Positions 10,164 to 61,147 of a DNA stretch of 64,000 bases are shown piece by piece. Numbering within the stretch: the stretch's first letter is position 1; each line of letters starts with the position of its first letter. The DNA is from an uncultured Candidatus Saccharibacteria bacterium (GTDB lineage Bacteria; Patescibacteriota; CALEFQ01), in contig OZ246404.1 in NCBI GenBank assembly GCA_965230955.1, forward strand, positions 582,410-646,409, in the 5' to 3' direction. The position numbers were made by a program, and so were the translations under genes. The notes beneath the pieces are model-generated. The model had not been told where the DNA came from, made no database searches, and saw nothing but the letters and a program-made list of their open reading frames with translations.

Positions 10164-10230
10164 GGTCTTTAGTCTTTGGTCTTTAGTCTTTGGCCACGCT
10201 TTCAGGCTAAAGACCAACGACGAAAGATCT
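10164..10230. repeat. Palindromic tandem-heptamer element (GTCTTTG family)
   Basis: ggtctttagtctttggtctttagtctttggcc ... ggctaaagaccaacgacgaaagatc. Confidence 0.8.
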
Positions 10231-10232
10231 TT

Positions 10233-11449: not shown

Positions 11450-11471
11450 AATCCCTCCTCTATAATTAATT

Positions 11472-11496
11472 GGCTAAAGACCAAAGACTAAAGACC
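11472..11496. repeat. Right half-site, inverted partner of 11082..11110
   Basis: ggctaaagaccaaagactaaagacc; reverse complement matches the left half. Confidence 0.7.
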
Positions 11497-11507
11497 TTTT
11501 AAAAATA

Positions 11508-12485
11508 CTACTTCCCATCCTTTATCCTCTGAATATTCTTCATAATATCAATCCCCACCGGGCAAACTTTGATGCATCGGCCGCAGCGGACACAACCGGG
11601 GACTTTGTAGCGCGCCGGATCACGGACGAATTTGTGTTCGTACCAGTAGTAAATTCTCTTCTCGGTATCATCTAGAAAACGGTGATCGCCGGCAATTCGG
11701 GAAAAATCCGGAAAGAAACAAGCCGACCATTCCCGTTTGCGGCGCTGTTCGCCGCTTTTGACTTTCGATTGATCGTCGATATTGAAACAATAACAAGTCG
11801 GGCAGGCCAAGGTGCATTTCCCGCAGGCCAAACAGATTTTGCCCAGTTCCGCCCAAAGCGCCTGATTATAACCGCTCTCCATCTTGCCCTTGATCTCAAC
11901 CATCTCGCGATCCATTCCTTCCTCGGAAATCGGACCGGCATATTTGATATGATCATAATTACGATAACCGAATTTTTCCAACAACCGCTGGCCGTCCTCC
12001 GAGCCGGTATAGACCTTGAAATTCGTTCCGGATTTTTCCAGGAAAATATCGAATTCAAAATGCTCCAAAACATTTTCCCGAAAGCGATCCTGAAAAGCGC
12101 CGAATTCCCGCTGATCGGTCGGCGCCATCGATTGACCGATCACAATGGTTTGTCGTTTCCGCTCCTGGTAATAAACATCGGAGGCGAAAACCTGATTATA
12201 CAAATCCAGCGCGCGCAGATCCAAAACAGTCAGGCCAAACAGCACCTGGGGCTTGCCCACTTTTATTTTCTTGAAAACTTCGCCGTGAATATTGAACATC
12301 GTCTCGGTCGCCGGCAGGAAAAACTTGCGCCAGGGATAATACGTCAGTTGGCCGTTCAGCTTCAGCTCTTCCGGATCGCCGATTTTTTGCGCCAAAAAAC
12401 GCCCATCGCTCTCGACCGGGCCGTACACCAGATTGCCTTCTTTGATCAGGAAGGCGGTGAAGTTTTTTAGTTCGGGGATGGTCAT
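11508..12485 (-). CDS. Iron-sulfur subunit with 2x[4Fe-4S], sulfhydrogenase beta (HydB) / AsrA-like
   Basis: CLACGKCTLACPTC and CVRCGRCIKVCPVG ferredoxin-type motifs; 325 aa. Confidence 0.65.
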   Translation of the reverse strand: MTIPELKNFTAFLIKEGNLVYGPVESDGRFLAQKIGDPEELKLNGQLTYYPWRKFFLPATETMFNIHGEVFKKIKVGKPQVLFGLTVLDLRALDLYNQVFASDVYYQERKRQTIVIGQSMAPTDQREFGAFQDRFRENVLEHFEFDIFLEKSGTNFKVYTGSEDGQRLLEKFGYRNYDHIKYAGPISEEGMDREMVEIKGKMESGYNQALWAELGKICLACGKCTLACPTCYCFNIDDQSKVKSGEQRRKREWSACFFPDFSRIAGDHRFLDDTEKRIYYWYEHKFVRDPARYKVPGCVRCGRCIKVCPVGIDIMKNIQRIKDGK

Positions 12486-26968: not shown

Positions 26969-27466
26969 ATGAACCCAATCTCTGCTTTTAACAAAATCCG
27001 CGACATCCCCTACCAGATACCACTTTCTTCAAAAGAAAAGGACTGTTGTTGTGGCGGGAAACATCGCCAGCTAAAAGACCTTCTCGCCAAGTGCAATTAT
27101 GAGAGCCGCTATCGCATTTGCACTTTTCGTTGGAGCCAGCTGTCATTACCACCTGAATTATTGGCGGTACAACACGAGGACTTATGCACGCATGTTTTTC
27201 TAGAAGTGAGACTGCACGGCCAGCTGATCATGGTTGATGCCACTTGGGATCCGGGATTAAGAAAAATTCTGCCAGTTAATGACTGGAACGGGAGCTCCAA
27301 CACTACGCTCGCGGTACCTCCGATCGAAATTTTCACCCCAGAAAAAAGTGCGGCACTAATGGTTCACACCACTGACAATGACATTCTAAACGAAAAAGAT
27401 CTGAAGACAAACGGCAGATTCTACCAAGCGTTTAACGAATGGCTTGAGAAAAATCGCCAGCATTAG
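26969..27466 (+). CDS. Hypothetical protein, possibly transglutaminase-like Cys/His/Asp fold
   Basis: Cys-rich N-terminus (CCCGG), then His and Asp spaced as in transglutaminase-like cores; weak. Confidence 0.25.
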   Translation: MNPISAFNKIRDIPYQIPLSSKEKDCCCGGKHRQLKDLLAKCNYESRYRICTFRWSQLSLPPELLAVQHEDLCTHVFLEVRLHGQLIMVDATWDPGLRKILPVNDWNGSSNTTLAVPPIEIFTPEKSAALMVHTTDNDILNEKDLKTNGRFYQAFNEWLEKNRQH

Positions 27467-27515
27467 CAAACTACAATAGCCCAATTGCTCTGAGGCTTTT
27501 TTTGTTTAGAAAAGG

Positions 27516-27543
27516 TTGACTTTTTCGGCAGTTATGGTATAGT
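27516..27543 (+). promoter_or_regulatory. Sigma-70-like promoter for the 27587 gene
   Basis: TTGACT - 16 nt - TATAGT, followed by a strong AGGAGG Shine-Dalgarno sequence about 11 nt before the ATG. Confidence 0.45.
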
Positions 27544-27586
27544 TGTCAGTCGTAAAATTTCAACCTGAAAGGAGGATAAACAGGTT

Positions 27587-28426
27587 ATGAATCAAGAAAA
27601 TAGGGTGACTCGTGAAAGTATTTTCGAAAGTGCAGTCATGTTCGCGTGTATACAAGTAGCAATTCTGGGATGTGCCGGCTGGTTGTTCCAGCGTTACTTT
27701 CCACTTAATGAGGCACACATCATTCCCTTTGCCTGGAGTTGCCTGATCGGATTGTGGATTCTTTCCCTGGTCATGTGCTTTCTCTTTGTATCCTTTCGTG
27801 TCCGCGCAGTCCAACGGGAAAACGATACGGCCAATGAAATCTTGGCGAAGCAACGCGCGGAGCAAGATAAAAGGACTCAAGCACAACACGAACGCGATCT
27901 GAAAGCAGTTGATCGAATCAGTTTTGAGCAAGGAGAAGCCGCCGCACATATCAGCTACTTACTGCCAGAAATCTCATTTCACCTTTCGATACTCTGCTAT
28001 CGTTTCATTTTACAGCCTCTTCCCCGCTCAAGTGAATCGAATCAAGAAGTGTTCTTCTGGGATAATCAGGAAAAGAGCACGGTCGAAATCAGTATTCAAG
28101 ATAACGAGAGTTCCCAGCAATCTTGCGCTTTCGTCACTCTGAGAAAGGATCGACTGCGGGTTATTCATGATCCCAAAGTGACAGTCCCGCAAATAACCCG
28201 CATCCAGATGATCGAGGAAGCAAACGAGTCAAATCTGAATCACGAGAATTCCCCTTATCACAATCTGGACGTATCACACCTGCGTCGAGTGCGTGACAAA
28301 ATTAGCGACATAGTTGATCACCCTCTCGGTGCCTACCCAGACCATTTATTCAAACAGATTCTGGAAAATGCTTTTCTGGTCACCATCACTGCCCCGCCCG
28401 AACCAGCCGAGACATCTGCCGATTGA
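27587..28426 (+). CDS. Hypothetical membrane protein with coiled-coil segment
   Basis: Two N-terminal TM helices then a charged predicted helix; single-gene unit with its own promoter and terminator. Confidence 0.4.
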   Translation: MNQENRVTRESIFESAVMFACIQVAILGCAGWLFQRYFPLNEAHIIPFAWSCLIGLWILSLVMCFLFVSFRVRAVQRENDTANEILAKQRAEQDKRTQAQHERDLKAVDRISFEQGEAAAHISYLLPEISFHLSILCYRFILQPLPRSSESNQEVFFWDNQEKSTVEISIQDNESSQQSCAFVTLRKDRLRVIHDPKVTVPQITRIQMIEEANESNLNHENSPYHNLDVSHLRRVRDKISDIVDHPLGAYPDHLFKQILENAFLVTITAPPEPAETSAD

Positions 28427-28973: not shown

Positions 28974-29858
28974 TCAGCGTAATTTTCGGCGCCTTTCCGC
29001 CGGAAAAACCTCACCGCGCCATCTCTTCAGCTCCTCCAAGTAATCTGAACTGGCACCGCGCGCTTCCGACAAAGAAAAAACTTCCGCCCAAGCCTTGTTT
29101 ATATATAAAAGCTCGGCCTCGCTTAAAACCCGGGCCTTTTCATTTTCCAAAAAAGACAACAACTCATTCGAGGCATCTGCGTTTGATTCTGGATTATTTT
29201 GGGGATGTATTTCTTGCCGCAGTTCATAATTTGTGGTAGCTCGGCGATATAGCTTAATCTTTTCAAATTGACCGGAACGTTCAATCGCCAAAATGCTATC
29301 CCCAAAAGACTGACTAGCCTCACGGTGCATATCCGGCTTGGTGAAACGCGCCACCCCGATCAATTTTTTTTGGAGTTCATATCTTAAAAAAATATCCGCC
29401 AAACTTACTTCAGGGGCTGTTAAAATAACATGGGCTGTCACGCCATATTCCTTTCGGTTCAGGAACGACGCTGTTCCGATTGGTACCTCTGGACGACGCA
29501 TTGTTCCTTCGATAATCATATCACCATGTTGCTCGGCAATTTTTTTGATGCAGCGCTCTACCCAAAAATTAACATCAGACTGAGTTAGATCGGCCGCATC
29601 TCTTTCATTACTCTCGAGAAATTGAGAATAAAATGGGTGATACCCTCTCAAATCGTCGGCATTAACCACCGAGGCCGGCCGGTCAGACAAAGTACTTTGC
29701 AACACCCTGATAAAATGACTCTTACCGGCGCCAGGCTGTCCTCCTAAAATATGAGCCTGGGGTTGATCTTGTCGAATTAGACCATATTCAAATCGGGGCC
29801 AAATTAAATCAGAAAATATTTCGTCTCTTTCTCGGACAGATAAAATATTTTTATCCAT
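28974..29858 (-). CDS. Zeta-toxin family P-loop kinase (PezT / zeta-like toxin)
   Basis: GGQPGAGKS Walker A near the N-terminus, about 290 aa, zeta-toxin topology. Confidence 0.7.
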   Translation of the reverse strand: MDKNILSVRERDEIFSDLIWPRFEYGLIRQDQPQAHILGGQPGAGKSHFIRVLQSTLSDRPASVVNADDLRGYHPFYSQFLESNERDAADLTQSDVNFWVERCIKKIAEQHGDMIIEGTMRRPEVPIGTASFLNRKEYGVTAHVILTAPEVSLADIFLRYELQKKLIGVARFTKPDMHREASQSFGDSILAIERSGQFEKIKLYRRATTNYELRQEIHPQNNPESNADASNELLSFLENEKARVLSEAELLYINKAWAEVFSLSEARGASSDYLEELKRWRGEVFPAERRRKLR

Positions 29859-30485: not shown

Positions 30486-31256
30486 CTAATACGAATAACT
30501 ATCTACGAGAGCCCCTGTTCCGGCTTTAAGATATGCGGTATCACCAGTGTTATTCCAAATAGCTTTGTCACTGCCAAAACTATAAGTTCCCGTATTTGTA
30601 TATACTCTTATCGATTTCCCCGCACCTAAATTTAAGGCTGGAAATGTAAATTTGTGCTTATCTTTATCTTCCAGAGTCCATCCACCCAAACTCTGAGCCA
30701 TTTTCCCATTATTTTTTATTTCAACATATTCATCGGACTCTTTACTACCACTTCCATTATAGAAAATATTTGTAATTATAACATTGGGAGCTATTCGATA
30801 AATGGTATCGTTCGAAGCCCCCTTCCCCAAACTGCGCATTATGCGAAACGCATCGGCCGGCCGATTTAGAAAGTATCTTCTAAGATTATCTGGATTGATA
30901 TACCACGCCTCGCCATGCGCCTGAACCTGAAGCAGTATTCGCCCAAGATATCTACGAGAGAAAGAGGTATCTCCAGATTGAGTGTCAGTCGGTATCCTCT
31001 TTAGTGAATCATTATTTATGCCTAACCCCAATAACCTCATGATCGCGAAAGCGTCATTCGGTCGCCCAAGATAGTACCTAAAACCATCAACCGGGTTTAT
31101 ATACCAAGCCTCACCATTACCCTGGACCTGCAACAATATGTATCCAGTAAGAGAATCAGAGGCGGGACCATCAGCTTTGGCAAAATTTACCCCTAATATC
31201 ATAGTTACTGCCATAATAACGCCAACTGCAAGAACCAAAAAAAAGTTCTTTTTCAT
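30486..31256 (-). CDS. Secreted protein with two internal about 50-aa repeats and a C-terminal lamin-tail-like (LTD) domain
   Basis: Signal peptide; duplicated ILLQVQ(G/A)xGEAWYINP..RY(Y/F)L.RP.DAF.IMR.LG; C-terminal YVEIKNNG...GWTLED...FTFP pattern. Confidence 0.45.
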   Translation of the reverse strand: MKKNFFLVLAVGVIMAVTMILGVNFAKADGPASDSLTGYILLQVQGNGEAWYINPVDGFRYYLGRPNDAFAIMRLLGLGINNDSLKRIPTDTQSGDTSFSRRYLGRILLQVQAHGEAWYINPDNLRRYFLNRPADAFRIMRSLGKGASNDTIYRIAPNVIITNIFYNGSGSKESDEYVEIKNNGKMAQSLGGWTLEDKDKHKFTFPALNLGAGKSIRVYTNTGTYSFGSDKAIWNNTGDTAYLKAGTGALVDSYSY

Positions 31257-44927: not shown

Positions 44928-46736
44928 TCACATTTTATCCGGAACGGGAATCGAAAGCAATTTTAGTGCGTTGGTCATGGTGATCAGAGTCGCTTTCAGT
45001 AGACCAACTCTGGCCGCTTGCAAAGCCGGCTCTGATCGAACCACCGAATGTTTGTGGTAAAAGGTGTTGACCAGCTTTGACAACCCGAGAACATAACGAG
45101 GAATCAGCGCGGTATCATAATGAGTAGCTGCTGTGATCACCGTATGGGGGAAATCCGCGATTGTCCGTAGAAGCGCTTTTTCTTCGCCCGAATCCAACTT
45201 TCCGTAATCCAAGACAGGATTAGAATCCTCGGTTGTGATTTTAGCTAGGATGCTTCCGATCCTGGTCACCGTATACTGAATATATGGCCCGGTATCACCT
45301 TGAAGATTGAGCGACTTGGCGGGATCAAACGTCATTCCGATTCGCGGAGTCACCAAGAGGATATAGAAATTGATTGCGCCAATAGCTACTTGATGCGCAA
45401 TCTGTTTTGCTTCCGCTTCTGGCAGGGACTCCTCTCTCTGACCGATCTTTTCCAGCACCATCTGCTCGATATCCTTCAGTAAGTCATCAGCGTCCACCAC
45501 CTTTCCTTCACGAGATTTCATCCGACCTTCCGGCAGTGATACCATCCCATAGGAAAAGTGATATAAGCCTTTGGCCCAGGGATAACCAAGCATTTCCATG
45601 ATTTTGAAAAGGCACTGGAAATGATGATTCTGCTCTTCCGCCACCACGTAAATCGATCGCGCCAGAGAAAATTCTTCCTGCTTAAGTACCGCGGTTCCGA
45701 TATCCTGGGTCGTGTAGAGAGCCGTACCATCGGCGCGCAACAAAGCCTTTTTGCCCAGATCTTTAAGATCAACCTGGACCGAGCCATCAGTGTCGTGAGT
45801 GAATATTCCGCGTTCGATTCCTTTGGCAACAATATCGCGTCCAAGACCGGAGGTCTTGGATTCATAGTACCATTTGTCAAACCCGACGCCATAAGCGAGG
45901 TAAGTTTCCCGAAAACCCGAAAGTACCCATTCGTTCATTTGCTGCCACAATTCCCGGACTGCTGGAACTCCTGCTTCCCATTGTCGCAACATCGTTCGCG
46001 CGGCAGTGCCGAATTCCGAATCAGGCAAGTTGAAAAATTTTTCTTTCTCTTTGCCCTCGGGAGGCTGTTTGGGATCAAACCCTTGTTGCTTGGCCCAGGA
46101 AATGTATTCCGCGTGAAAGTGTTTTTCGAACATGACGTAGTAATTGCCCACAAAATGATCACCTTTTTGGTTCTCACTTTGCGGAGTTTTACCGTCACCG
46201 AATTTCTGGTACGCTACCATGGACTTGCAGATATGGATACCGCGGTCGTTTACCAGGATCGCCGCCACGACATCAAACCCGGCGGCTCGCAGTAATTGGA
46301 TAAGAGACCAGCCCAAGGTGTTATTGCGGACGTGACCGAGATGCAGAGGCTTGTTGGTGTTCGGGGAGGAATATTCAACCATGACTCTCTCGCTCGTCTT
46401 TGATGCCTGCCCGTAGGCCGGGCCTTCTGACATGACCTGTTCGATCACCAGTTTGGCAAAAAAAGCCGAGTCCAAGGTAACATTGACGAAGGGGCCTGCA
46501 GCTTCCGCTGTGCCGACATAATCTTTGGCCGCTAGAAAACTAGCCAACGCTGTCGCTAATGACTTAGAATCGCGCTTGACCGGTTTGGCAAAACGGAAAC
46601 ACGGAATGGAAATATCGGCCGCGACGTGAGCGGGAGGTGCCTGTATTTCGACTGGCACATCAGCAGGAAGTTTTAGGGCATCATGGACATCAGCTCGAAC
46701 TTGATCGCGCAGTTTTTGGACGGTTGTTGTTTTCAT
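44928..46736 (-). CDS. argS: Arginine--tRNA ligase
   Basis: Class I HIGH (PNTNKPLHLGHVRN), KMSK-like motif, DALR anticodon-binding C-terminus; 602 aa. Confidence 0.9.
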   Translation of the reverse strand: MKTTTVQKLRDQVRADVHDALKLPADVPVEIQAPPAHVAADISIPCFRFAKPVKRDSKSLATALASFLAAKDYVGTAEAAGPFVNVTLDSAFFAKLVIEQVMSEGPAYGQASKTSERVMVEYSSPNTNKPLHLGHVRNNTLGWSLIQLLRAAGFDVVAAILVNDRGIHICKSMVAYQKFGDGKTPQSENQKGDHFVGNYYVMFEKHFHAEYISWAKQQGFDPKQPPEGKEKEKFFNLPDSEFGTAARTMLRQWEAGVPAVRELWQQMNEWVLSGFRETYLAYGVGFDKWYYESKTSGLGRDIVAKGIERGIFTHDTDGSVQVDLKDLGKKALLRADGTALYTTQDIGTAVLKQEEFSLARSIYVVAEEQNHHFQCLFKIMEMLGYPWAKGLYHFSYGMVSLPEGRMKSREGKVVDADDLLKDIEQMVLEKIGQREESLPEAEAKQIAHQVAIGAINFYILLVTPRIGMTFDPAKSLNLQGDTGPYIQYTVTRIGSILAKITTEDSNPVLDYGKLDSGEEKALLRTIADFPHTVITAATHYDTALIPRYVLGLSKLVNTFYHKHSVVRSEPALQAARVGLLKATLITMTNALKLLSIPVPDKM

Positions 46737-48001
46737 GGATTCTTCCCTTCAATAGAATTTCGCTGCCAAGGTTGGGTCATGCAGTGAAAACCGCCATGTC
46801 CCAGTAACAACTGGGGACACGGAACGGCCACCACATAGCGCTGTTTATCCCGGATTTCAAATGTCGGATCGATAAACCGATCCGCCTGGACAAACTCATA
46901 ACCTACCCGACAAAGCTCTTCTATCGTAGCATAATTGCAGTCTGGAATCAAGGTGAGCCCGGGTCGCAAAGTGAAAAGATTTGAACCTTCCCACCGCTGC
47001 TCGCGGTCTTGGATGAGACGATCATGGCCGCCACAGGATATCAGATTGTTGACAGGAACTTTGTAATGGTCGAACGCGGTCAGGAGACTGGGAAATTCCC
47101 CGATCTTCACCGATCCATTTTCTGACAAGGTCAACGCCAGCACCTTGACACCCACTTGCCCATTAGACGGCTCAATCAGCGGTTTGTAAACCACGAAGTC
47201 CCCATCATTGATCTGGGAGTAAATCGTATCGAGGTGCATACACATGCGATCGCGTGGCATGCTGACCGCCAGAATGTTTCTGATACCGAGGTCAAATAAG
47301 GAAGTGCGACACAAGGAGAGGATTGTTTCGAGTTTGGTCCGCTCGCTAACCCCGACCATCAACAGATCTTCACGCAGGGGGAAAACGTCTCCCCCTTCCA
47401 TGTTGTAAGGTTCCTGCGGCAGAATCAAATGATCCTTTGAAAGCGAATAAACGGGATGATATTGTAATATCGCTTTCATGACAATCGCTTCGCGCATTCG
47501 AGGCACTTTGGCGAAAAGAGACAAGAAAATCTTATCCCCTACTACCGCCGCCATGTCACGTGTAAACATGGAATTTGGAATAGGATTAGCGATGACCCGG
47601 CCATCCAGTTTGCCTGAGAAAACACAATTGACGAAGTCGGTAGTCGAAAGAGCTTCGGGATCACCCATCTCTTGGTGAATTCCGATATCGAGAGCCAAGA
47701 TCTTTTTGAGATGCGAACAAGCATCAATCGTTTCCCCAAAAAGTGCCTCTAAAAACAGAACTCCAGAGGGACCGGTCACTTTTTGCATGCAGGCGACCAA
47801 AACACCGAATTCTGATCTTGCCCGAGGGACATCGAGAATGTCGTCAAACAACAGCTGCTGAGCTTGTTCTGGTGAGACTGCTTCCAAGGCAGTCTCAGGA
47901 AAATTGACGACGACCTGGCGCAATAGCCCGTTCTCATTTCGTACACACAAATTTGACACACCAGCACCACATTGACGGTTGCTTTCGCTTATTTCCTGCA
48001 T
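46733..48001 (-). CDS. Arginine deiminase-family protein (amidinotransferase superfamily)
   Basis: C-terminal catalytic GHGGFHCMTQP motif and overall ADI length (422 aa). Confidence 0.7.
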   Translation of the reverse strand: MQEISESNRQCGAGVSNLCVRNENGLLRQVVVNFPETALEAVSPEQAQQLLFDDILDVPRARSEFGVLVACMQKVTGPSGVLFLEALFGETIDACSHLKKILALDIGIHQEMGDPEALSTTDFVNCVFSGKLDGRVIANPIPNSMFTRDMAAVVGDKIFLSLFAKVPRMREAIVMKAILQYHPVYSLSKDHLILPQEPYNMEGGDVFPLREDLLMVGVSERTKLETILSLCRTSLFDLGIRNILAVSMPRDRMCMHLDTIYSQINDGDFVVYKPLIEPSNGQVGVKVLALTLSENGSVKIGEFPSLLTAFDHYKVPVNNLISCGGHDRLIQDREQRWEGSNLFTLRPGLTLIPDCNYATIEELCRVGYEFVQADRFIDPTFEIRDKQRYVVAVPCPQLLLGHGGFHCMTQPWQRNSIEGKNP

Positions 48002-48120: not shown

Positions 48121-49218
48121 ATGCCAAAAATAAACCCGACCAAGGTCGCCTCAAAAATATATCGCGAAGTATTAGCCATACAAAGGAACGAAAGAGTCCT
48201 CATTGTCGCAGATTTTCGTCCCGCAAATTACCAAGTCGCAACTATTTTAGGAAAAACGATTTCCTCCCAGGGTAATCACTTTAATATTGTTTTTCAAAAA
48301 CCTCGAGCCAAAGGACAGCCCATGGACATGACTGTGTACTCCGCTCTATTACAAAAACCAAACGTCCTAATTTCCCTCGGCCGGATTGGCAATGATCCTT
48401 TTATGGGCAAGAAAGTATATCGACATAACGGACGCACCTTTGAAAATTATTTTTACTATTTAATTGATGGGGGCATTTCCCGCGGAGCCTATGGTTTTAC
48501 CGACACCGCTGAGGAATACTGGAATTTGATTGACCTTGATTATAGCAAAATGCATCGACTGGCCAATATTTTAAAAAAGCATTTAGATAAAGCTGAAGCC
48601 GTCATAATAAAAGATCCGCCCACCGGGACTGAATGTCATTTTGAAATTCGCCGTCATCGCGCCTGGCTAGATGATGCTTTTTATCATCAGCCGGGACACT
48701 CCGGCAACCTGCCGGCCGGAGAAGTTTTCATCACTCCCGATCGGCATACCGGAGAAGGAACTATCTTTGTGCGGGGCAGCGGCCAGCTAATAAAACTTAC
48801 TCGTCGGCTGGCAACCCCCATGAAACTACGCGTGAAAAATAATCTAGCCGTAGATTTCGTTGGTCCAACCGCCCATCAGTTAGAACGAGATCTCGCCGGG
48901 ATAGCCAATGATATGGTAAAGAAAACACGTACCGGGAAACTTTCGAAACAAAAAATGTCTGAATACCAGCACAATATTTACCATGTGGGCGAAATCGGTT
49001 TTGGTCTGAATCCCAAAGCCAGGATTGGCGGCAAAAATATGCTAATTGACGAAAAGACGTATGGCACGGTACACATTGCTCTCGGAGACGACTACGATGG
49101 AGATTCTCCGGCCCCGATTCATTTGGATCAGATGATCGGCTATCCGGAAGTATATCTGATAACCAACGGTAAAAGGCAGCTGATTTTGCGCAACAAGGAA
49201 TATTTATTCGACCTTTAA
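48121..49218 (+). CDS. Aminopeptidase, M29 (AmpS/PepS thermophilic metalloprotease) family
   Basis: Conserved Glu/His/Asp metal-binding positions of M29 (e.g. HVGEIGFG, HIALG), 365 aa. Confidence 0.65.
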   Translation: MPKINPTKVASKIYREVLAIQRNERVLIVADFRPANYQVATILGKTISSQGNHFNIVFQKPRAKGQPMDMTVYSALLQKPNVLISLGRIGNDPFMGKKVYRHNGRTFENYFYYLIDGGISRGAYGFTDTAEEYWNLIDLDYSKMHRLANILKKHLDKAEAVIIKDPPTGTECHFEIRRHRAWLDDAFYHQPGHSGNLPAGEVFITPDRHTGEGTIFVRGSGQLIKLTRRLATPMKLRVKNNLAVDFVGPTAHQLERDLAGIANDMVKKTRTGKLSKQKMSEYQHNIYHVGEIGFGLNPKARIGGKNMLIDEKTYGTVHIALGDDYDGDSPAPIHLDQMIGYPEVYLITNGKRQLILRNKEYLFDL

Positions 49219-49251
49219 ATTGGCGAGGATAATTTTTTCCGCCACTAGTCC

Positions 49252-49280
49252 TTGACACCGCAGTCAAGAATTGATAGAGT
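49252..49280 (+). promoter_or_regulatory. Putative promoter of the tRNA-Arg array, with a CTTGAC-N6-GTCAAG palindrome over the -35
   Basis: TTGACA - 17 nt - TAGAGT, 19 nt upstream of the first tRNA. Confidence 0.35.
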
Positions 49281-49299
49281 GCTCGGATCTTGTTTCTTC

Positions 49300-49373
49300 G
49301 CGCCTATAGCTCAATTGGATAGAGCACCGGACTACGAATCCGTCGGTCAGGGGTTCGAATCCCCTTAGGCGCA
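49300..49373 (+). tRNA. tRNA-Arg (anticodon ACG)
   Basis: Cloverleaf folded by hand: acceptor gcgccta/taggcgc, anticodon loop cuACGaa, T-loop ttcgaat; CCA not encoded. Confidence 0.85.
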
Positions 49374-49379
49374 TGAAGA

Positions 49380-49453
49380 GCGGCTATAGCTCAATTGGAT
49401 AGAGCGCTGGACTTCGAATCCAGAGGTCGGGAGTTCGATCCTCCCTAGCCGCA
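49380..49453 (+). tRNA. tRNA-Arg (anticodon TCG)
   Basis: Acceptor gcggcta/tagccgc, anticodon stem ctgga/tccag, loop cuUCGaa. Confidence 0.85.
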
Positions 49454-49461
49454 AACGGAGC

Positions 49462-49535
49462 GCACCTGTAGCTCAGTTGGATAGAGCAGTGGACTTCTAA
49501 TCCACCGGTCGCGGGTTCGAGCCCCGCCAGGTGCA
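49462..49535 (+). tRNA. tRNA-Arg (anticodon TCT)
   Basis: Acceptor gcacctg/caggtgc, anticodon stem gtgga/tccac, loop cuUCUaa. Confidence 0.85.
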
Positions 49536-49544
49536 TGCTACAAC

Positions 49545-49618
49545 GCGGCAGTAGCTCAGTTGGATAGAGTATCAGACTCCGAATCTGAAGGCCGGGGGTT
49601 CAAATCCCCTCTGCCGCA
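49545..49618 (+). tRNA. tRNA-Arg (anticodon CCG)
   Basis: Acceptor gcggcag/ctgccgc, anticodon stem tcaga/tctga, loop cuCCGaa. Confidence 0.85.
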
Positions 49619-49623
49619 TTATC

Positions 49624-49697
49624 GGGCCAGTAGCTCAGATGGATAGAGCACGGGACTCCTAATCCTGAGGCCACGGGTTCGAATCCCGTCTGGCTCA
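49624..49697 (+). tRNA. tRNA-Arg (anticodon CCT)
   Basis: Acceptor gggccag/ctggctc, anticodon stem cggga/tcctg, loop cuCCUaa. Confidence 0.85.
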
Positions 49698-49705
49698 TGC
49701 CTTAA

Positions 49706-49747
49706 CCGACAGACCTTGCAGAAATGCACTAGGCTGTCGGTTTTTTC
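49706..49747 (+). terminator. Rho-independent terminator of the tRNA-Arg array
   Basis: ccgacag ... ctgtcgg followed by tttttt. Confidence 0.55.
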
Positions 49748-49825
49748 TTGCAAAAAAAAACACCGGCCAATCGTCGATGTTTTTGATCAAATAGTCTCGC
49801 ACAGCAAATCAAGGATCTGGGATTA

Positions 49826-51214
49826 TCACCATCCGAACTGACGCCCCACGTCTTCAGAAGTTTCACGCCTACGGGCAACCGTAAGAATTCCGTTTTGGGC
49901 AATAATTTTTGCTGGCGAGGACAACAAGCAATGATGTGAACTCAAGGCATCTTGATAAGCCCCAGTATCTAAAATACCGAGATATTGTTCAGGCATTTCT
50001 TTATCCGCCGCTGGGCTAATTACCGGTAAAGACAAATAGCCATTACCTGTGTATTTATCATCAGAATCACACGAAGAACCGGCCAGCCAAACACGCGCCA
50101 ATGATTGGCTAGTCAAATTATTGACCGGCACAACCTGCCATTTCTGTTGAACCGCCCAAGTATCACACAAGTCATTCATAAAACTACCGTCCAGAACATA
50201 CCATTTACGAGCTACCGCTTTCTCAATATCTTTTTGGTGTATGACTTTAAAAACTGAGATCTGCGCCGGTGCCACCAAATGTCTCCCCCACTCGACAATA
50301 ATATCTGGGGATACCTGATACTTGGATTGAAAGGTAGCCAACACCTCAACAATACCACGCACCGTTCGATCAATTGAATAAGATTTATTTTTTTCGTAAG
50401 TAACAGGAAATCCGCCCCCCATATCAATTGCATTCAGACCGGGATTGAGTTTTTTTAGAAAAACAAAAACCTTCATAGCTTCACGTAATAATTTGACCAG
50501 ATCATCCGGATTTTCTACCTGTGATCCGATATGATAATGAAGCAATTTCAGATTCTTGATGTGTCCTATTTTCTTAATTTCGTCCGTTGACATACCAAAT
50601 CGATTCACTTTCTTATCCCAATGAGACTGAACTTTTACATCAATATCTATTCTGACCCCGACATCCGCATTTACACGCCATTTATGACTGTTAAAATACT
50701 CCAACTCGTCAGTATCTTCGATGACTGGAATTACTTTTAGCCCTCTAGTCTTAAGATCGGTAATTAGCCCTAAATACTGATTCGTTTTAGGGCCGTTACA
50801 TATGATCTTAATTCTATCATTGAATCTATCCTGTTCCCACAGTTTTTTAACCAGCCAAAGTTCGTTAGCTGAACTCACTTCCAAATTACCATCCTCACTA
50901 ATGACCGGCAGAACATATTCTTTGTTCTGATTGACTTTCATTGGATAATGATAAAAAAACTTTCCCTTATAGTGAAAGTTTTTTATGTGCCGCGAAAAAG
51001 AATCAATCAAAAAATTTAGACGTTGTTCAATCACAAAAGGAAACACGATTTCCAACGGCGTTCCAAATTTCTTGATAATATCAGGAAGATTATACTGATA
51101 ATTCCCTTCGTTAACTACCAATTCTCCTTCCTTGTTTATATCATAAAAATCGGTGTCGAGTTCTTTTTTGCCCAGCTTCCAAATCTTTTTATAATCAGGA
51201 TTATGATTGCCCAT
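49826..51214 (-). CDS. PLP-dependent decarboxylase of the Orn/DAP/Arg fold-III family, SpeA-like biosynthetic arginine decarboxylase
   Basis: LLHYHIGSQ, YPMKVNQ, ICNGPK, MGGGFPVTY and SSCDSDD align with the SpeA motifs HFHLGSQ, YPIKVNQ, VCNGYK, VGGGLGVDY and TCDSDG; 462 aa; AT-rich codon usage. Confidence 0.65.
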   Translation of the reverse strand: MGNHNPDYKKIWKLGKKELDTDFYDINKEGELVVNEGNYQYNLPDIIKKFGTPLEIVFPFVIEQRLNFLIDSFSRHIKNFHYKGKFFYHYPMKVNQNKEYVLPVISEDGNLEVSSANELWLVKKLWEQDRFNDRIKIICNGPKTNQYLGLITDLKTRGLKVIPVIEDTDELEYFNSHKWRVNADVGVRIDIDVKVQSHWDKKVNRFGMSTDEIKKIGHIKNLKLLHYHIGSQVENPDDLVKLLREAMKVFVFLKKLNPGLNAIDMGGGFPVTYEKNKSYSIDRTVRGIVEVLATFQSKYQVSPDIIVEWGRHLVAPAQISVFKVIHQKDIEKAVARKWYVLDGSFMNDLCDTWAVQQKWQVVPVNNLTSQSLARVWLAGSSCDSDDKYTGNGYLSLPVISPAADKEMPEQYLGILDTGAYQDALSSHHCLLSSPAKIIAQNGILTVARRRETSEDVGRQFGW

Positions 51215-51313
51215 TGCTATTTTTAATTTTTAATTTTTAATCCCCAATTTAAAGATCTATAATAATTCGTAATTAGAAGTGTATCATATCCAGGCATCTT
51301 GTAAATATTCGCA

Positions 51314-52114
51314 CTAGAAAACCTTTCTTGTGTTTAACCAATTCAAACCATCCCGGACGGCCTTTTGAGCAGTGGCGGTATCGTGCCCGCCGCGTTGGTA
51401 AAATTTCCACTCAAACTGACCTTTCGGAAGCTTTCTCGATATTAATCTCCCGTAGCGTAAAGACTTAGTGAAACTAACGCACCGGTCTTGTTTTCCATGG
51501 CCAATAAACATTTTTGCCCGAGATAAATACCCAATATTTGACATCGGCGATAAATCGTCAAGATTTTCCAAATGACGCTTCCACTGAGATTTCAAGATAC
51601 CCCGATACAGATGAGAATACCCGTCTTCTTTCATACTTTCCAAAAAGCGCTTATTTGTTTCTTCTCCAGGAACACTACCACACGAACCACTATCAACCAC
51701 CGGGAAAATCAAAATTAATTCCTTAATCAATGGATTGAAACGAGGCAAAAGAGGGATATAGGTACCCCCGAAACTCCGGCCGACAAAAACCACTCGTTGG
51801 TATTTAAAACGGCGCTTGTCATTAAGTAAGGCATTCTTCCCAACACAACCATTGGTAAAATACTTATACAAATCCAGGAAGGTCTTAATACAGTTTTTGG
51901 GGGTGAAAACCCCATCACTGCGTCCGTAACCAAGATAATCAGGCACAAATAAGTCAAAGCCCGCTTGATTGATTATATCGGCTCCTGGCAGTGTTCCGTT
52001 ATCTGGCGGCAGAGGTGCGCCAATTCCATATACAACAACCTGCTTAACGGGATGACTACAAGGATAGTACATGCCAGCAATTTTTTTGAATTTATATAGT
52101 TGACTTCTGGCCAT
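51314..52114 (-). CDS. Alpha/beta-hydrolase-fold protein
   Basis: GRSFGG nucleophile elbow (GxSxG) plus a downstream His; start called at MARSQLYKF. Confidence 0.5.
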   Translation of the reverse strand: MARSQLYKFKKIAGMYYPCSHPVKQVVVYGIGAPLPPDNGTLPGADIINQAGFDLFVPDYLGYGRSDGVFTPKNCIKTFLDLYKYFTNGCVGKNALLNDKRRFKYQRVVFVGRSFGGTYIPLLPRFNPLIKELILIFPVVDSGSCGSVPGEETNKRFLESMKEDGYSHLYRGILKSQWKRHLENLDDLSPMSNIGYLSRAKMFIGHGKQDRCVSFTKSLRYGRLISRKLPKGQFEWKFYQRGGHDTATAQKAVRDGLNWLNTRKVF

Positions 52115-52174
52115 TTTTGAAATGTTTAAATAGGGCCGGGGGAAACTTACTGTTTCTCCCAGCCCCAAACTACC

Positions 52175-52978
52175 TCAGATTCCGATTTCAATTGTCGGGG
52201 TAGCTGCCTGCCAACTGTGCAGGTCAAAGCGAGCAACTTCGAATAAAGGGCTACGCTTACGTTCGATGTTCACCATCAAGGTTCCCAATTTCGAAAGTGC
52301 CTGATCCGGTGCCAAGTAACTATACAGACACCCAACCGTCAGCGATTCCCCGAAACTATTTACCAATTCAGGAATCAAGGCAAGATTCTTGCGCGTGAAT
52401 GACAGATTAGAAATTTGGAGTTTCCGCTTAGCCCATTCGATAACTCGTTTCTCCAATGGAAATCCTGTCAAATCATCTGGGCAAGGTTCTTTTGTTGAAA
52501 TTGTCAGGTCGCATTTTACCGACAGCTCACGGTACGTAGAATACCTGAACTGTATTCGGTCGTACAGTTGTCGCACTTCCTCAACGGCTTGCGAATAGAT
52601 CAGAGAGTGCCGATCAAGAATCCTAGATATTTCACCGTTTTCGGCATCTGTCGATATAACTCCCAGGTCGGCAAACACCACTGCCACCGAAACATTGATG
52701 TTGGTACAGTATTCAGTAACAACATCCAGCAGGCGCCTTACGGCAAGCCATTTACCGCTCACCCTGCTCCCTTCGATACTTGTGGCCTCCGCCAGCAAGC
52801 GCGACTCATTGATTGGCCCTTCTTGGTACAGGGGACAGACCGGAATCACAAAATGTAATCCGTGCCGAGGAATCAACATATCCCAATTCTGGCAATGGAT
52901 ATCCATATCCCGATCTTTTCCCCTGATACTACGAAGTTTCTTCTCGAAACTACTTCGAAATTCGCTATCAGGTACCAT
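52175..52978 (-). CDS. Hypothetical protein; start MVPDSEF preceded by a GGGAGGGGAAA Shine-Dalgarno sequence
   Basis: About 267 aa, no recognisable motif; co-oriented with the decarboxylase and hydrolase in the AT-rich block. Confidence 0.35.
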   Translation of the reverse strand: MVPDSEFRSSFEKKLRSIRGKDRDMDIHCQNWDMLIPRHGLHFVIPVCPLYQEGPINESRLLAEATSIEGSRVSGKWLAVRRLLDVVTEYCTNINVSVAVVFADLGVISTDAENGEISRILDRHSLIYSQAVEEVRQLYDRIQFRYSTYRELSVKCDLTISTKEPCPDDLTGFPLEKRVIEWAKRKLQISNLSFTRKNLALIPELVNSFGESLTVGCLYSYLAPDQALSKLGTLMVNIERKRSPLFEVARFDLHSWQAATPTIEIGI

Positions 52979-53128
52979 TTTCCCCTCCCTTCTGAAAGAC
53001 AAAAACAGAAAATAGATGATTTCAATTTTAGCAATAACCGCAAAAAAGTCAAGCGGAAAACAAAAGCCTGTAATTCACCACTACACTTTTTATTCCCCCC
53101 CCCTATATCCCCTGTTACCCTAAAAGTC

Positions 53129-53160
53129 AAAAACCGCCCGCCGAGTCGGCGGGCGGTTTT
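53129..53160. terminator. Bidirectional rho-independent terminator
   Basis: aaaaaccgcccgcc gagt cggcgggcggtttt. Confidence 0.5.
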
Positions 53161-53214
53161 GTTATAATCGAGCAGTTATCCGGCCCACCCAGGTCACTCG
53201 ATACTATTTTTCTG

Positions 53215-53289
53215 TGGCTGGGGAGATAGGATTCGAACCTATGTATGGCGCCTCCAGAGGGCGCTGCCTTACCGCTTGGCTACTCCCCA
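53215..53289 (-). tRNA. tRNA-Gln (anticodon CTG), CCA encoded
   Basis: Minus-strand cloverleaf: acceptor tggggag/ctcccca (U1-A72), anticodon stem gcgcc/ggcgc, loop cuCUGga, T-arm atagg ttcgaat cctat, then g + cca. Confidence 0.75.
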
Positions 53290-53292
53290 ATA

Positions 53293-53367
53293 AAGTCAAA
53301 AGTCAAAAATCAAAAGTAAAAAGTTGGAATATCGAACTTTAGACTTTTGACTTTTGACTTTTTACTT
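53293..53367. repeat. Palindromic tandem-heptamer element, GTCAAAAG variant (tRNA-Gln / ftsX junction)
   Basis: aagtcaaaagtcaaaaatcaaaagtaaaaag ... ctttagacttttgacttttgactttttactt. Confidence 0.75.
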
Positions 53368-54273
53368 CCTCAAGTATCGCCCAACGGCGATTGATGAACT
53401 AATGATCCCCAACAGCACTCCCAGGGCCACCATGCCGCCGGCAATCCAAAGCATATTCTGGGTGAAAAAATGCACCATGTCAAGGCTTTCCCCTTCGAAG
53501 AAGGCTGTGATTTTAGGATTGGCGGCATTGAGAATCGGATAAAGCAAAACCAATGTAACCACCGCGCCAATAATGCCATAGATGACACCTTCCAGTAAAA
53601 ATGGCCCGCGAATAAACCAATTAGTCGCGCCGACCAGTTTCATGATTCCGATCTCCTCTTTGTGGGTATATATAGCCAGACGAACGGTATTGAAAACCAC
53701 TAAAATCGCAATTATCACGAAAGCTCCACCGACGGCGATACCGCCCTTCCGGATAGTACTGGCGATCCGCACCAGCCGGTCAATCACGTCTTTATTTTCC
53801 TGAAAATCAACTTTTAGAATTACGTCGGAGAAACGATCGCTTGATAAATAATCGGATATTCCCTCATAATCCTCAGTCTGAATCGCCTTGATCACCAGTG
53901 AGGCTTCCAGTGGATTCTCCTGGAGTTCTTCCAACGATTTCAGGATCAAATCGTCGTCTTTATGAGCTTGCTTGAATTGATTCAGCGCTTCTTCCTTGCT
54001 GATGAATTTTGTCGTCTCCACATTGTTCAAGTTTTGAACCTGCGCTCGCACCTCTAAAATTCGATCCTCCTGAGCCGCGGTTTTGAAATAAACCGTCAGG
54101 TCGACCTTCTTTTGGACCTGATCTACCGCCGCGTTGGCCAGCAAGTTCAAGATGACGATCGTAGTAATGATAAAAAGCGTCACGACCATAATAACAGTGG
54201 TCGCCACACTTAACCAAATATTGCGCCAAAAATTATCCAGACCGAATTTTACGACTCTAAGGAAACCAGACAT
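53362..54273 (-). CDS. ftsX: Cell division permease FtsX
   Basis: Four TM segments with a large periplasmic loop, paired with ftsE; the ORF N-terminus (MTFDLWLSL) is read from the repeat, so start is called at MSGFLRV. Confidence 0.7.
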   Translation of the reverse strand: MSGFLRVVKFGLDNFWRNIWLSVATTVIMVVTLFIITTIVILNLLANAAVDQVQKKVDLTVYFKTAAQEDRILEVRAQVQNLNNVETTKFISKEEALNQFKQAHKDDDLILKSLEELQENPLEASLVIKAIQTEDYEGISDYLSSDRFSDVILKVDFQENKDVIDRLVRIASTIRKGGIAVGGAFVIIAILVVFNTVRLAIYTHKEEIGIMKLVGATNWFIRGPFLLEGVIYGIIGAVVTLVLLYPILNAANPKITAFFEGESLDMVHFFTQNMLWIAGGMVALGVLLGIISSSIAVGRYLRK

Positions 54274-59617: not shown

Positions 59618-59795
59618 GCCCCTACCACTATTCCCCGACCTGCTGCCGACAGCAGGTTTTTTCTTTATCCGCGCAGGCGCCATCTATCACTCAGGACATA
59701 ATACCTTAATTTCTATTGACGAAGCTAGACTGGATAGTTAGAATGCAACGATAGTCACAAATCATTCAACTGTTTTCATGAAAAGGAGGATGATC

Positions 59796-60392
59796 ATGAC
59801 AACAATTGCAAGAAGAGCTCTATTAAGCGTGTGGGACAAGACAGATATCGTGATGTTCGCACAAGGATTAAACCAACGCGGGTTCGAAATCATCTCGACT
59901 GGTGGCACAGCGAAGGTGTTAACCGATGCCGGAATTTCTGTCACCACTGTCGAACAAGTAACCAGTTTCCCGGAATGCTTCGGCGGAAGATTAAAGACTC
60001 TTCATCCCAGAATAATGGGCGGCATACTGCGACGACGCGACAACATCACAGACAATGAATCAGCTATTTTGCTGGGCATTGCCGATATCGACCTGGTGGT
60101 TGTCAACTTATACCCCTTCCAAACGGTCACGAGCCAGCCAGACTGCACATTCGAGGAAGCGATTGAAAATATCGACATCGGCGGTCCAAGTATGATCCGA
60201 GCAGCCGCCAAGAATCATGAGTCCGTGGTAGTTGTGGTTGATCCGCGCGATTATCGCAAAATTTTGCGGGAACTTGCGCCAGGTTATACCTGGATCAGTC
60301 CGCAACTGAAATTCCAGTTGGCAGTAAAAGTTTTTAAACTTACTGCTAAATACGACCGGGCAATCTATAATTACTTAAAAAACAGATATTAG
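59796..60392 (+). CDS. IMP cyclohydrolase domain protein (PurH N-terminal MGS-like domain only)
   Basis: Near-collinear match to PurH residues 1-200 (SVSDKTG..., LSTGGTA, KTLHP, GGIL, NLYPF, DIGGPSMIRAAAKNH). ORF stops where the AICAR transformylase domain would begin; AGGAGG Shine-Dalgarno sequence 6 nt upstream. Confidence 0.7.
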   Translation: MTTIARRALLSVWDKTDIVMFAQGLNQRGFEIISTGGTAKVLTDAGISVTTVEQVTSFPECFGGRLKTLHPRIMGGILRRRDNITDNESAILLGIADIDLVVVNLYPFQTVTSQPDCTFEEAIENIDIGGPSMIRAAAKNHESVVVVVDPRDYRKILRELAPGYTWISPQLKFQLAVKVFKLTAKYDRAIYNYLKNRY

Positions 60393-60424
60393 ACAAAATC
60401 GTCAACGTGACTATCATATCGATC

Positions 60425-60459
60425 CAGCCTATCCATTAGAGATAGGCTGTTTCTTTTTT
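60425..60459. terminator. Rho-independent terminator
   Basis: cagcctatc cattaga gataggctg then tttctttttt. Confidence 0.5.
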
Positions 60460-60647
60460 CGGCAACAGAGCAAATAGATAATGGGCAAAATGCCGGCCGT
60501 ATTCAGAATCAAAATCAGGACAAACCAGACCGGCTGATTGTTTCGTCCGGCGCGCCAGAGGCCAAAGCCCTTCCAGACCATTTCCCAGATCATTAAGGGA
60601 ATTAGCCAGATTAGCCATGGGCTTAAATCGATGGTTTCGAGAATCAT
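60429..60647 (-). CDS. Small membrane protein
   Basis: 72 aa, two TM segments. Confidence 0.25.
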   Translation of the reverse strand: MILETIDLSPWLIWLIPLMIWEMVWKGFGLWRAGRNNQPVWFVLILILNTAGILPIIYLLCCRKKKQPISNG

Positions 60648-60760
60648 AAAGTTTCACTAATTAATCTCATTGTAATCATTCTTATTGACAGTTGTTTTTT
60701 TTCGTGAAAGAATGGCAACAGAGAAACAAATCAATGTCATTTCCAGATAGGAGGGACGAT

Positions 60761-61147
60761 ATGAATGACATAACAAAGTTATGGATTAGAATTGGCAGTA
60801 GCGATCTTGCCGCCGCGATCTGTGTGTTAATAATCCTGGGGACATTCGATGCCAAGTCGACAGAGGTAATCAAGACTTTTATAGCTATCCTGGCTTTAGT
60901 CGGCTGGTTTTTTACCACCATGATTCACTCCTGTTGTATCGCGAATCTCGTTTATCCAGGCAAGACTGGAGATAAAAAGTTTTTCTTAGGGGCCCCTGTA
61001 ATTTTGATTGGGACGTTGATAATAACAGTATCCGGATCTCTTCAGTACAATTGCGCCGCTTCCTTTCCCTATCTATTTTCCCTAGGCATAGCCGCCAAAA
61101 TCATGTGGTATCACTGGCTAACTTTCTATCCAAAACCACAAGAATGA
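60761..61147 (+). CDS. Hypothetical membrane protein
   Basis: Four TM segments; AGGAGGGA Shine-Dalgarno sequence upstream of MNDITK. Confidence 0.3.
   Translation: MNDITKLWIRIGSSDLAAAICVLIILGTFDAKSTEVIKTFIAILALVGWFFTTMIHSCCIANLVYPGKTGDKKFFLGAPVILIGTLIITVSGSLQYNCAASFPYLFSLGIAAKIMWYHWLTFYPKPQE

Follow-up and report, generated by a model that had tools for sequence, protein, structure and literature searches.

Must a block of AT-rich genes that is bracketed by tRNA genes on both sides be a genomic island, or can it be native to the genome that carries it? This question is raised by a 64,000-nucleotide stretch of DNA (positions 582,410 to 646,409 of contig OZ246404.1, assembly GCA_965230955.1), hereafter called the window, from an uncultured Candidatus Saccharibacteria bacterium. 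Its genome of ~1.1 Mb (1,136,458 bp) is of a size typical of the Patescibacteria, or candidate phyla radiation. On the minus strand of the window a 267-aa protein, an alpha/beta-hydrolase and a decarboxylase are encoded between an array of five tRNA-Arg genes and a tRNA-Gln gene. An original prediction, made from the sequence alone, had favored horizontally acquired DNA and had further suggested that the three genes could form an undescribed polyamine- or arginine-modifying cassette. The analysis described here led to a different view, held with slightly less than even confidence, in which the region is a native arginine-centred neighbourhood that holds a candidate aminoacyl-tRNA-dependent enzyme pair, namely the 267-aa protein and the hydrolase.

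At the sequence level the 267-aa protein is indeed without a recognisable motif, as the original prediction had stated: no match was obtained in Pfam, in NCBIfam or, using phmmer, among the sequences of the PDB. A word-indexed homolog search returned one relative, and an exhaustive HMMER search of representative sequences gave 92 representative clusters, mostly of 260-295 aa. None of the 62 family members that were aligned matched Pfam at E<=0.1, the profile made from the 62 sequences found no PDB sequence, and the N-terminally extended members (358-790 aa) showed no recognisable extra domain. Near-invariant in the alignment are C48 (in VCPLY), S71-R72-x3-K76, A103-D/N104-x-G106, H124, Y128, Y221-x3-D225 and E239-R240; all of these, with D104 taken from the third motif, are candidate catalytic residues. 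The maximal Kyte-Doolittle mean over 19 residues is below 1.6, giving no transmembrane segment.

The fold was then predicted with AlphaFold2. A run on two sequences gave a pLDDT of 51.6, and the model that was used was the one built from the 62-sequence alignment, with a pLDDT of 95.3 and a pTM of 0.92. When this model was compared to the PDB with Foldseek, six structures of cyclodipeptide synthases (CDPSs), including YvmC, Rv2275 and AlbC, were matched at prob 0.87-0.99 with TM-scores of 0.37-0.49; a tyrosyl-tRNA synthetase (TyrRS) came next at prob 0.75, and the CDPSs were the only coherent high-probability matches. In BFVD, an independent library, the high-probability matches were TyrRS (0.97) and a cyclodileucine synthase (0.96). 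This remote-homology comparison, which the original prediction had proposed for the gene, shows the modelled 267-aa protein to have a Rossmann fold like that of the CDPSs and class Ic aminoacyl-tRNA synthetases, lacking HIGH and KMSKS; as in the CDPSs, neither motif is present in any of the 62 family members. In the model, C48 ends the first Rossmann strand, S71, R72 and K76 lie at the N-terminus of the next helix, and D104 and E239/R240 are at the ends of later strands. The conserved residues would accordingly line the canonical active-site edge of the fold, where CDPSs hold Ser37 and Tyr202 and class I synthetases HIGH and KMSKS. The Y221-x3-D225 motif parallels Y178-x3-E182 of AlbC, the sequence of which was verified. 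Membership in the CDPS family by sequence was considered and rejected, as PF16715 was not matched and the hhalign probability was 0.1 against AlbC, Rv2275, YvmC and BtCDPS. The 267-aa family is previously undescribed; it would be related in kind to tRNA-dependent, synthetase-like enzymes and is not a member of the CDPSs; a literature search gave nothing relevant on CDPS-like enzymes in Patescibacteria.

The neighbouring gene encodes a GxSxG alpha/beta-hydrolase, as had been predicted, with a G130-R-S132-F-G-G elbow, D228 (in HGKxD) and H262 forming a triad that is invariant in 31 aligned sequences. Its Pfam matches, to Hydrolase_4 and Peptidase_S9, are weak (S9/S33-like), and a profile of the family run against the PDB gave only weak, generic esterase and S33 matches. 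More than 140 homologs with 45-61% identity were found in Patescibacteria. The protein is strongly basic (pI 9.8, net charge about +21; median pI of the family 9.2) and, with a maximal Kyte-Doolittle 19-residue mean below 1.6, has no transmembrane segment.

The arrangement of the two genes in other genomes was followed in ~50 dereplicated loci, collected by hydrolase-anchored scans of genome and metagenome collections and by contig look-ups. A member of the 267-aa family lies immediately upstream of the hydrolase gene, on the same strand, in 37 of the 46 loci for which upstream sequence was available, and one metagenome-assembled genome contains two such pairs (L022 and L029). The 267-aa protein and the hydrolase are a conserved two-gene module that is widespread in Patescibacteria. 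The pair is probably translationally coupled; in the window the hydrolase start lies 6 nt past the stop codon of the 267-aa gene, with a Shine-Dalgarno-like GAGG just upstream. The decarboxylase adjoins the pair in this genome only (1 of ~50 loci). The suggestion of an arginine-related cassette thus goes in the right direction as regards the hydrolase and the 267-aa protein, and the decarboxylase drops out of the unit; what co-occurs in other genomes is the pair with a synthetase or a tRNA gene, not the three genes.

The gene after the pair is most often that of an aminoacyl-tRNA synthetase, above all the arginyl-tRNA synthetase (ArgRS), and the commonest order is unknown, hydrolase, argS. Within two genes downstream of the hydrolase, ArgRS was found in 12 loci, class I LysRS in 3, class II LysRS in 1, TrpRS in 1 (with another one four genes away) and TyrRS in 1. 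A synthetase is thus within two genes in 18 of ~44 informative loci, about 10 times the expectation; the chance value of ~4-5% rests on the estimate that synthetases are ~2% of genes. The type of synthetase goes along with the subgroup of the 267-aa family: the core subgroup is found with ArgRS, another one with class I LysRS, the N-terminally extended members with TyrRS or PheRS-beta, and the most divergent subgroup with TrpRS. A search for specificity residues that follow the type of neighbouring synthetase returned the subgroup structure and no clean switch of charge or hydrophobicity. Other downstream neighbours are PheRS-beta (three genes away), a stand-alone tRNA_bind protein (Trbp111-like; three loci), a B3_4 protein and NYN nucleases. 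In locus L031 a tRNA-Arg(CCG) and a tRNA-Arg(UCG) gene stand on either side of the pair, and in L019 and L028 tRNA-Arg genes lie 2-8 kb from it.

Several observations were made along the way in these loci. In L009, L010 and L012 the 267-aa-family gene is split into two open reading frames (ORFs) of 62 and 189 aa (~7150-7984 in L009) and is probably a pseudogene. The class I (archaeal-type) LysRS of L006 (8019-10319; also L015 and L037), directly downstream of the pair, is 766 aa long, with an editing-type B3_4 domain at its C-terminus. ARAGORN called a 97-nt 'tRNA-Tyr' with anticodon AUA at 12857-12953 of L029, an odd call that may be intron-containing or spurious. Some metagenome-assembled genomes with the pair are labelled Gammaproteobacteria or Micrarchaeota (L012, L016, L018, L022, L025, L028-L031), which suggests misbinning or mislabelling.

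In the window itself, the surroundings of the pair are rich in arginine genes. Starting from the promoter-like site, the order on the minus strand is CDPS-fold protein, hydrolase and decarboxylase, convergent with the tRNA-Arg array, which is followed by the M29-like gene, the gene of the arginine deiminase (ADI) family and argS. The array contains all five arginine anticodons, i.e., a complete arginine-decoding set, and lies 2.6 kb from argS. The argS and ADI-family genes overlap by 4 nt (46733-46736) and are probably co-translated; the same adjacency of ADI and then ArgRS recurs in another Patescibacteria genome (L007). The ADI-like protein has an N-terminal region of ~130 aa that is unmatched, and it scores well under the arcA equivalog cut-off. 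Because of this order of arginine genes and of the recurrence of the ADI-ArgRS pair elsewhere, the flanking tRNA-Arg genes are better seen as a part of the neighbourhood than as integration targets.

The decarboxylase proved to be the SpeA-like enzyme, dependent on pyridoxal phosphate (PLP), that had been predicted. PF02784 is matched at 1.2e-25 and PF00278 at 5e-4, in agreement with an alanine-racemase-fold PLP domain followed by a C-terminal beta-sandwich, the best matches are SpeA models and the SpeA structures 3n2o, 3nzq and 3nzp in the PDB, and the protein shares with SpeA both the PLP lysine (K93 in YPMKVNQ, aligned with YPIKVNQ of SpeA) and the substrate-binding motifs, with GGGF, EWGRH (E-x-GR), CDSDD and GAYQ all present. 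It differs from SpeA in its length, 462 aa versus ~630-660 aa: the N-terminal extension is missing, and so is a helical insert of ~100 aa, where the alignment jumps from query residues 326/330 to SpeA residues 361/460. The scores lie under the SpeA equivalog cut-offs (216.7 bits versus 369 for NF003763, 208.5 versus 624 for TIGR01273). More than 1398 homologs of ~455-460 aa, which are 55-67% identical, are distributed over Patescibacteria and anammox Planctomycetes. In four out of four genomes the homolog directly follows the gene of the ribosome hibernation factor (HPF), in the order MurC, MurB, Prs, HPF, arginine decarboxylase (ADC) ... SecA. In three of the four, the next gene consumes agmatine, being either of the agmatinase type or an agmatine deiminase accompanied by an N-carbamoylputrescine amidase, a further likeness to SpeA; in L075 and L076 an arginase-family (agmatinase) gene comes after ADC, and in L034 PAD_porph and CN_hydrolase genes do. 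Arginine decarboxylation is supported as the function because the homologs adjoin these agmatine-consuming enzymes, and the motifs show the predicted protein to be a minimal, PLP-dependent arginine decarboxylase of the SpeA type (alanine-racemase fold) that is catalytically intact. In the window it occupies a non-canonical place away from the HPF ... SecA locus, and no agmatinase, agmatine deiminase or S-adenosylmethionine decarboxylase was present among the ~20 of 53 window ORFs that were scanned against protein-family libraries. A membrane-bound spermidine synthase homologue noted by the original prediction was recovered as a fused MFS/spermidine synthase. A literature search returned nothing relevant on this type of decarboxylase in Patescibacteria.

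The three genes had been described as visibly richer in AT than the rest of the window, the GC content of which is 47.4% overall. This description was correct for the decarboxylase gene (39.2% GC, z -2.8, the lowest among 53 window genes; GC at third codon positions, GC3, 0.371, z -2.6), mildly so for the hydrolase gene (42.8%, z -1.7 versus the window genes), and did not apply to the 267-aa gene, which is normal (47.1%, z -0.3). The GC dip spans one and a half genes, not the three-gene block. The hydrolase gene lies 4.6 points under its host locus here and on average 4.2 points under it in 15 other loci; since the homologs are ~4 points under the surrounding DNA in these 15 loci, its low GC is a family trait. 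For the 267-aa family the corresponding offsets are -0.3 points here and a mean of -0.6 elsewhere. The decarboxylase, at -8.3 points here versus +3.3, -1.3, -0.1 and -2.9 in four other genomes (mean ~-0.3), is the only one of the three genes that is compositionally anomalous for its family. Its GC and GC3 deficit and its non-canonical place make a lateral acquisition plausible, and we regard it as evenly balanced whether the gene came from a lower-GC Patescibacterium.

Codon usage was followed with a score that was normalised for amino-acid composition and expressed as z, because a cruder log-likelihood, which varies with that composition, was misleading. The z was between -2.0 and -3.6 for each of the six genes from argS through the 267-aa gene (window mean -0.2, sd 2.6), and the three block genes are not separable from the neighbouring, essential argS. 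Elsewhere in the window there are genes with stronger codon-usage deviations than any gene of the block (28974-29858, 2429-3610, 26969-28426, 59778-61147), and the gene at 30486-31256, which encodes a lamin-tail domain, is nearly as AT-rich as the decarboxylase gene (40.9% GC, GC3 0.358).

What the pair might do can be proposed from these data. The 267-aa protein would take an aminoacyl group from an aminoacyl-tRNA, here Arg-tRNA(Arg), onto Cys48 and would then pass it to a second substrate, which may be another aminoacyl-tRNA or a small acceptor. The substrates of the basic Ser-Asp-His hydrolase would be these same molecules, tRNA-bound or aminoacylated, and it might for example release or recycle the product. 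The decarboxylase may have been recruited secondarily, probably via transfer from a lower-GC Patescibacterium, and would add, next to ArgRS and the deiminase, a third enzyme that consumes arginine. In its complete form the proposal is a tentative one, to which we give clearly less than even confidence: the 267-aa protein would found a lineage of CDPS-like enzymes that depend on aminoacyl-tRNA, the third of its kind and diverged independently of the others, with a Cys nucleophile and a dedicated basic hydrolase; the subfamilies of this lineage would use Arg-, Lys-, Trp- or Tyr-tRNA beside the matching synthetase, and the member described here would use Arg-tRNA from the array of five tRNA genes.

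Among known tRNA-dependent systems, the CDPSs (AlbC, YvmC, Rv2275; PF16715) are the closest in structure, being the best and only coherent high-probability matches, supported by two libraries. They resemble the 267-aa protein in having a single domain, a comparable length (about 230-290 aa) and a class-I-synthetase-like Rossmann fold devoid of HIGH or KMSKS; they would also share a nucleophile-type residue right after the first strand and a Tyr-x3-acid motif on a later helix, and in both there is a genomic tie to the supply of charged tRNA. The differences are, however, considerable. There is no sequence or profile similarity. The near-invariant Cys48 of the 267-aa family would stand where CDPSs have a Ser (AlbC Ser37), the Ser not being conserved, and E239-R240 where CDPSs have Y202-H/P203; residues 49-73 constitute a 25-residue insert with S71-R72-K76, and the helix equivalent to the tRNA-binding helix of CDPSs is not basic. 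The partner here is an alpha/beta-hydrolase and not a cyclodipeptide oxidase, P450 or methyltransferase, and the family is found beside ArgRS and LysRS in Patescibacteria, Arg and Lys being unusual for CDPSs. MprF, an aminoacyl-phosphatidylglycerol synthase (aaPGS), is an aminoacyl-tRNA-dependent transferase specific for Lys, Arg or Ala, and next to its gene lies that of an aminoacyl-phosphatidylglycerol hydrolase, by which the modification is undone. The amino acids used by this system fit the Arg/Lys bias of the pair, but MprF consists of a GNAT-type catalytic domain and a membrane flippase domain, whereas the pair has no transmembrane segments and no match to the MprF family. A Cys in the position of the nucleophile is not without precedent, as the S37C variant of AlbC has been crystallised (4q24). 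The fungal tRNA-dependent arginine-containing cyclodipeptide synthases (RCDPSs; AnkA, AvaA) require a cysteine, C193 in AvaA (PMC11610942); they use Arg-tRNA and were once annotated as hypothetical proteins without a recognised domain, but they are fungal, longer than 500 aa and carry a DDXXE motif. The likeness of the 267-aa family to them is an analogy only.

Several of the results weigh against a tRNA-dependent transferase. No sequence similarity to CDPSs or to TrpRS/TyrRS is detectable (hhalign probability 0.1 each), the TM-scores are borderline, and the fold may be a generic Rossmann fold of the HUP class, a universal stress protein having also been matched at prob 0.9. The equivalence of Cys48 and AlbC Ser37 would be topological only, and the family, in which the counterpart of the basic tRNA-binding helix of AlbC lacks that charge, has a mildly acidic pI of 5.8. 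Inheritance of synteny within one clade could account for much of the ArgRS adjacency. For the decarboxylase no donor lineage was found, the closest homolog being only 67% identical. The synteny with synthetases could also reflect the supply of amino acids and not the use of charged tRNA, which leads to an explanation that we consider unlikely, though worth weighing, in which the hydrolase, as a peptidase or esterase, releases Arg, Lys or Orn from peptides or from precursors that are acylated, with the 267-aa protein in an accessory or regulatory role as a subunit, and the neighbouring synthetase, deiminase, arginase and decarboxylase are the consumers to which the free amino acids are supplied in an auxotrophic cell, without any involvement of charged tRNA. 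Salvage of this kind would agree with the S9/S33 peptidase-family matches of the hydrolase, with the M29 aminopeptidase-like gene of the window cluster, and with two unusual loci: in L030 the hydrolase forms one fused protein with a class-III (ArgD/ornithine-aminotransferase-like) aminotransferase (10004-11968), with TrpRS directly after it and a 295-aa protein upstream that is a very remote relative of the 267-aa family (hhalign 41%), and in L009 an arginase-family gene, in place of a synthetase, overlaps the hydrolase stop codon by 4 nt. It also draws on a hydrolase subtype that has no CDPS-fold partner, itself a point against the transferase, and is preceded instead by an M20 deacylase in 5 of the 46 loci; in this context, seen in L007, L017 and L044-L046, the order is ArgE/DapE-type M20 deacylase, hydrolase, in some cases GNAT, and a metallo-beta-lactamase-fold (MBL) protein, near the genes of ArgG (argininosuccinate synthase), ornithine aminotransferase, DDAH/ADI-like proteins and ArgRS. 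Salvage leaves unexplained, however, why the only confident fold matches of the partner are CDPSs and TyrRS, why the hydrolase is so basic, and why stand-alone tRNA-binding, B3_4 and NYN proteins and interleaved tRNA genes are present; moreover, the subgroups linked to TrpRS and TyrRS do not suit a peptidase for basic amino acids. Alternatively, the pair might serve quality control in trans, with the basic hydrolase deacylating mischarged or unwanted aminoacyl- or peptidyl-tRNA (e.g., ornithyl- or canavanyl-tRNA(Arg)) and the partner recognising the amino acid or the tRNA, by analogy to free-standing editing factors, which are often encoded near synthetase genes. The synteny with synthetases and tRNAs, including B3_4 editing-type domains that adjoin or are fused to neighbours, the positive charge of the hydrolase and a partner that has a class-I-synthetase-like fold but lacks the ATP motifs are all compatible with such a role, but neither fold combination occurs in any known editing factor, the near-invariant Cys of the partner and its Tyr, Asp, Glu and Arg residues are suggestive of catalysis and not of recognition alone, and the links to arginase, decarboxylase and aminotransferase are left unexplained; we consider this improbable.

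A quite different explanation, concerned with the origin of the genes, is that all three genes together constitute a genomic island which was inserted between the tRNA genes long ago and has since decayed. This had been the original interpretation, and it had a good deal in its favor: tRNA genes and terminators stand at both borders, as in known tRNA-flanked islands, the local GC dip is real, with the 1-kb bins across 50001-52000 being the lowest in the window (0.393 and 0.389 versus 0.474 overall), the decarboxylase gene deviates in GC and GC3 and is off its usual locus, and the 267-aa protein of the window falls into a rare subgroup, its close relatives numbering just two. The absence of an integrase and of attachment-site repeats, already noted in the original prediction, held when examined: there is no integrase, recombinase or other mobility gene among the ORFs between about 43 and 58 kb (radical SAM, SfLAP, argS, ADI, M29, ADC, hydrolase, 267-aa gene, ftsX, ftsE, prfB, MBL), and the search for a duplicated tRNA 3' end that had been recommended, carried out over 49200-53400, gave no such end and no att-like direct repeat, with only the tRNA array and short chance matches being returned; a 16-nt inverted match in this search reflects mere T-arm similarity. 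Scans against PHROG (phage) and PADLOC (defence) gave no matches, and all three proteins have their nearest relatives among those of Patescibacteria. Because there are no mobility genes, att repeats or phage and defence matches and because all three proteins have Patescibacteria relatives, the data do not support an integrated island that comprises the entire block. The composition of the genes also speaks against it, as the third gene has normal GC, the low GC of the hydrolase is family-wide and codon usage is similar to that of the adjacent argS, and so does the conservation of the pair, which is kept beside argS or tRNA-Arg genes in many Patescibacteria. Unlike in typical tRNA-flanked islands, the content is conserved in relatives and the tRNA-Arg genes appear to be functionally part of the neighbourhood. 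For the whole block the island is therefore a very improbable explanation. A lateral origin, for which the original prediction had argued, is plausible for the decarboxylase alone and not for the hydrolase and 267-aa genes; these two have a GC content that is normal for the locus or the family and are conserved in relatives, the outcome that the original prediction had itself named as refuting it. The decarboxylase gene is anomalous in GC and out of its usual place.

As regards the layout, the calls of ORFs, tRNAs and hairpins placed the three minus-strand genes, the tRNA genes on both sides and both terminators where the original prediction had located them (Table 1). The block looks like a transcription unit of its own because of the promoter-like site, the Shine-Dalgarno-like AAGGGAGGGG just 5' of the ATG of the 267-aa gene, the short gap between the first two genes and the terminators. 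The terminator upstream of the unit is predicted to end the transcription of tRNA-Gln and to insulate the three genes. A long hairpin between the ftsX stop codon and tRNA-Gln (53292-53367) was also observed, with 36-nt arms that are 86% complementary and a dG of about -34 kcal/mol; it is made of AAAGTC/AAAAGTC-like repeats and has no match in Rfam.

Table 1. Positions of the features discussed, numbered from the first nucleotide of the window.
Feature	Position	Strand	Remarks
Candidate CDPS-fold gene	52175..52978	-	267 aa; ATG at 52978, alternative start at 53002 would give 275 aa
Alpha/beta-hydrolase gene	51314..52168	-	284 aa; TTG start at 52168
SpeA-type decarboxylase gene	49826..51214	-	462 aa
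Promoter-like site of the three-gene unit	53025..53052	-	TTGACT, 16 nt, TG-TAAAAT; upstream of the unit
Intrinsic terminator	53130..53160	-	perfect 14-bp GC-rich hairpin and U-run
tRNA-Gln (CUG)	53215..53289	-	
Terminator of the tRNA-Arg array	49706..49747	+	hairpin and U-run, dG about -23 kcal/mol
Five tRNA-Arg genes	49300..49697	+	anticodons ACG, UCG, UCU, CCG, CCU; convergent with the three-gene unit
Promoter-like site of the tRNA-Arg array	49252-49280		
M29 (aminopeptidase T)-like gene	48121..49218	+	PF02073 at 3.6e-08; between arginine genes
Arginine deiminase-family (ADI) gene	46733..48001	-	PF02274 at 4.8e-46; under the arcA equivalog cut-off
argS (arginine-tRNA ligase)	44928..46736	-	TIGR00456, 393 bits; above cut-off
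Fused MFS/spermidine synthase	17944-19440		NF037959, 229 bits

As this locus shows, AT-rich genes between tRNA genes are not necessarily an island: one of the three belongs to a family that is AT-rich throughout, one has a normal composition and one, the decarboxylase gene, may have been acquired. The analysis also documents a minimal SpeA-type arginine decarboxylase as common in Patescibacteria. The genomes of these organisms are tiny and rich in unknown conserved genes, and a module that is conserved in them likely matters for their host-dependent lifestyle. The CDPS-like structure, the very basic hydrolase and the ArgRS, LysRS, TrpRS, TyrRS and tRNA neighbours together point to a new extra-ribosomal use of charged tRNA. 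If this were true, it would widen the range of tRNA-dependent chemistry, which so far comprises the bacterial CDPSs, the fungal RCDPSs, MprF and the Fem and L-F transferases. A gene pair specific to the candidate phyla radiation would also gain a function that can be tested, and this would imply that the non-ribosomal use of charged tRNA is widespread in the minimal genomes of Patescibacteria.

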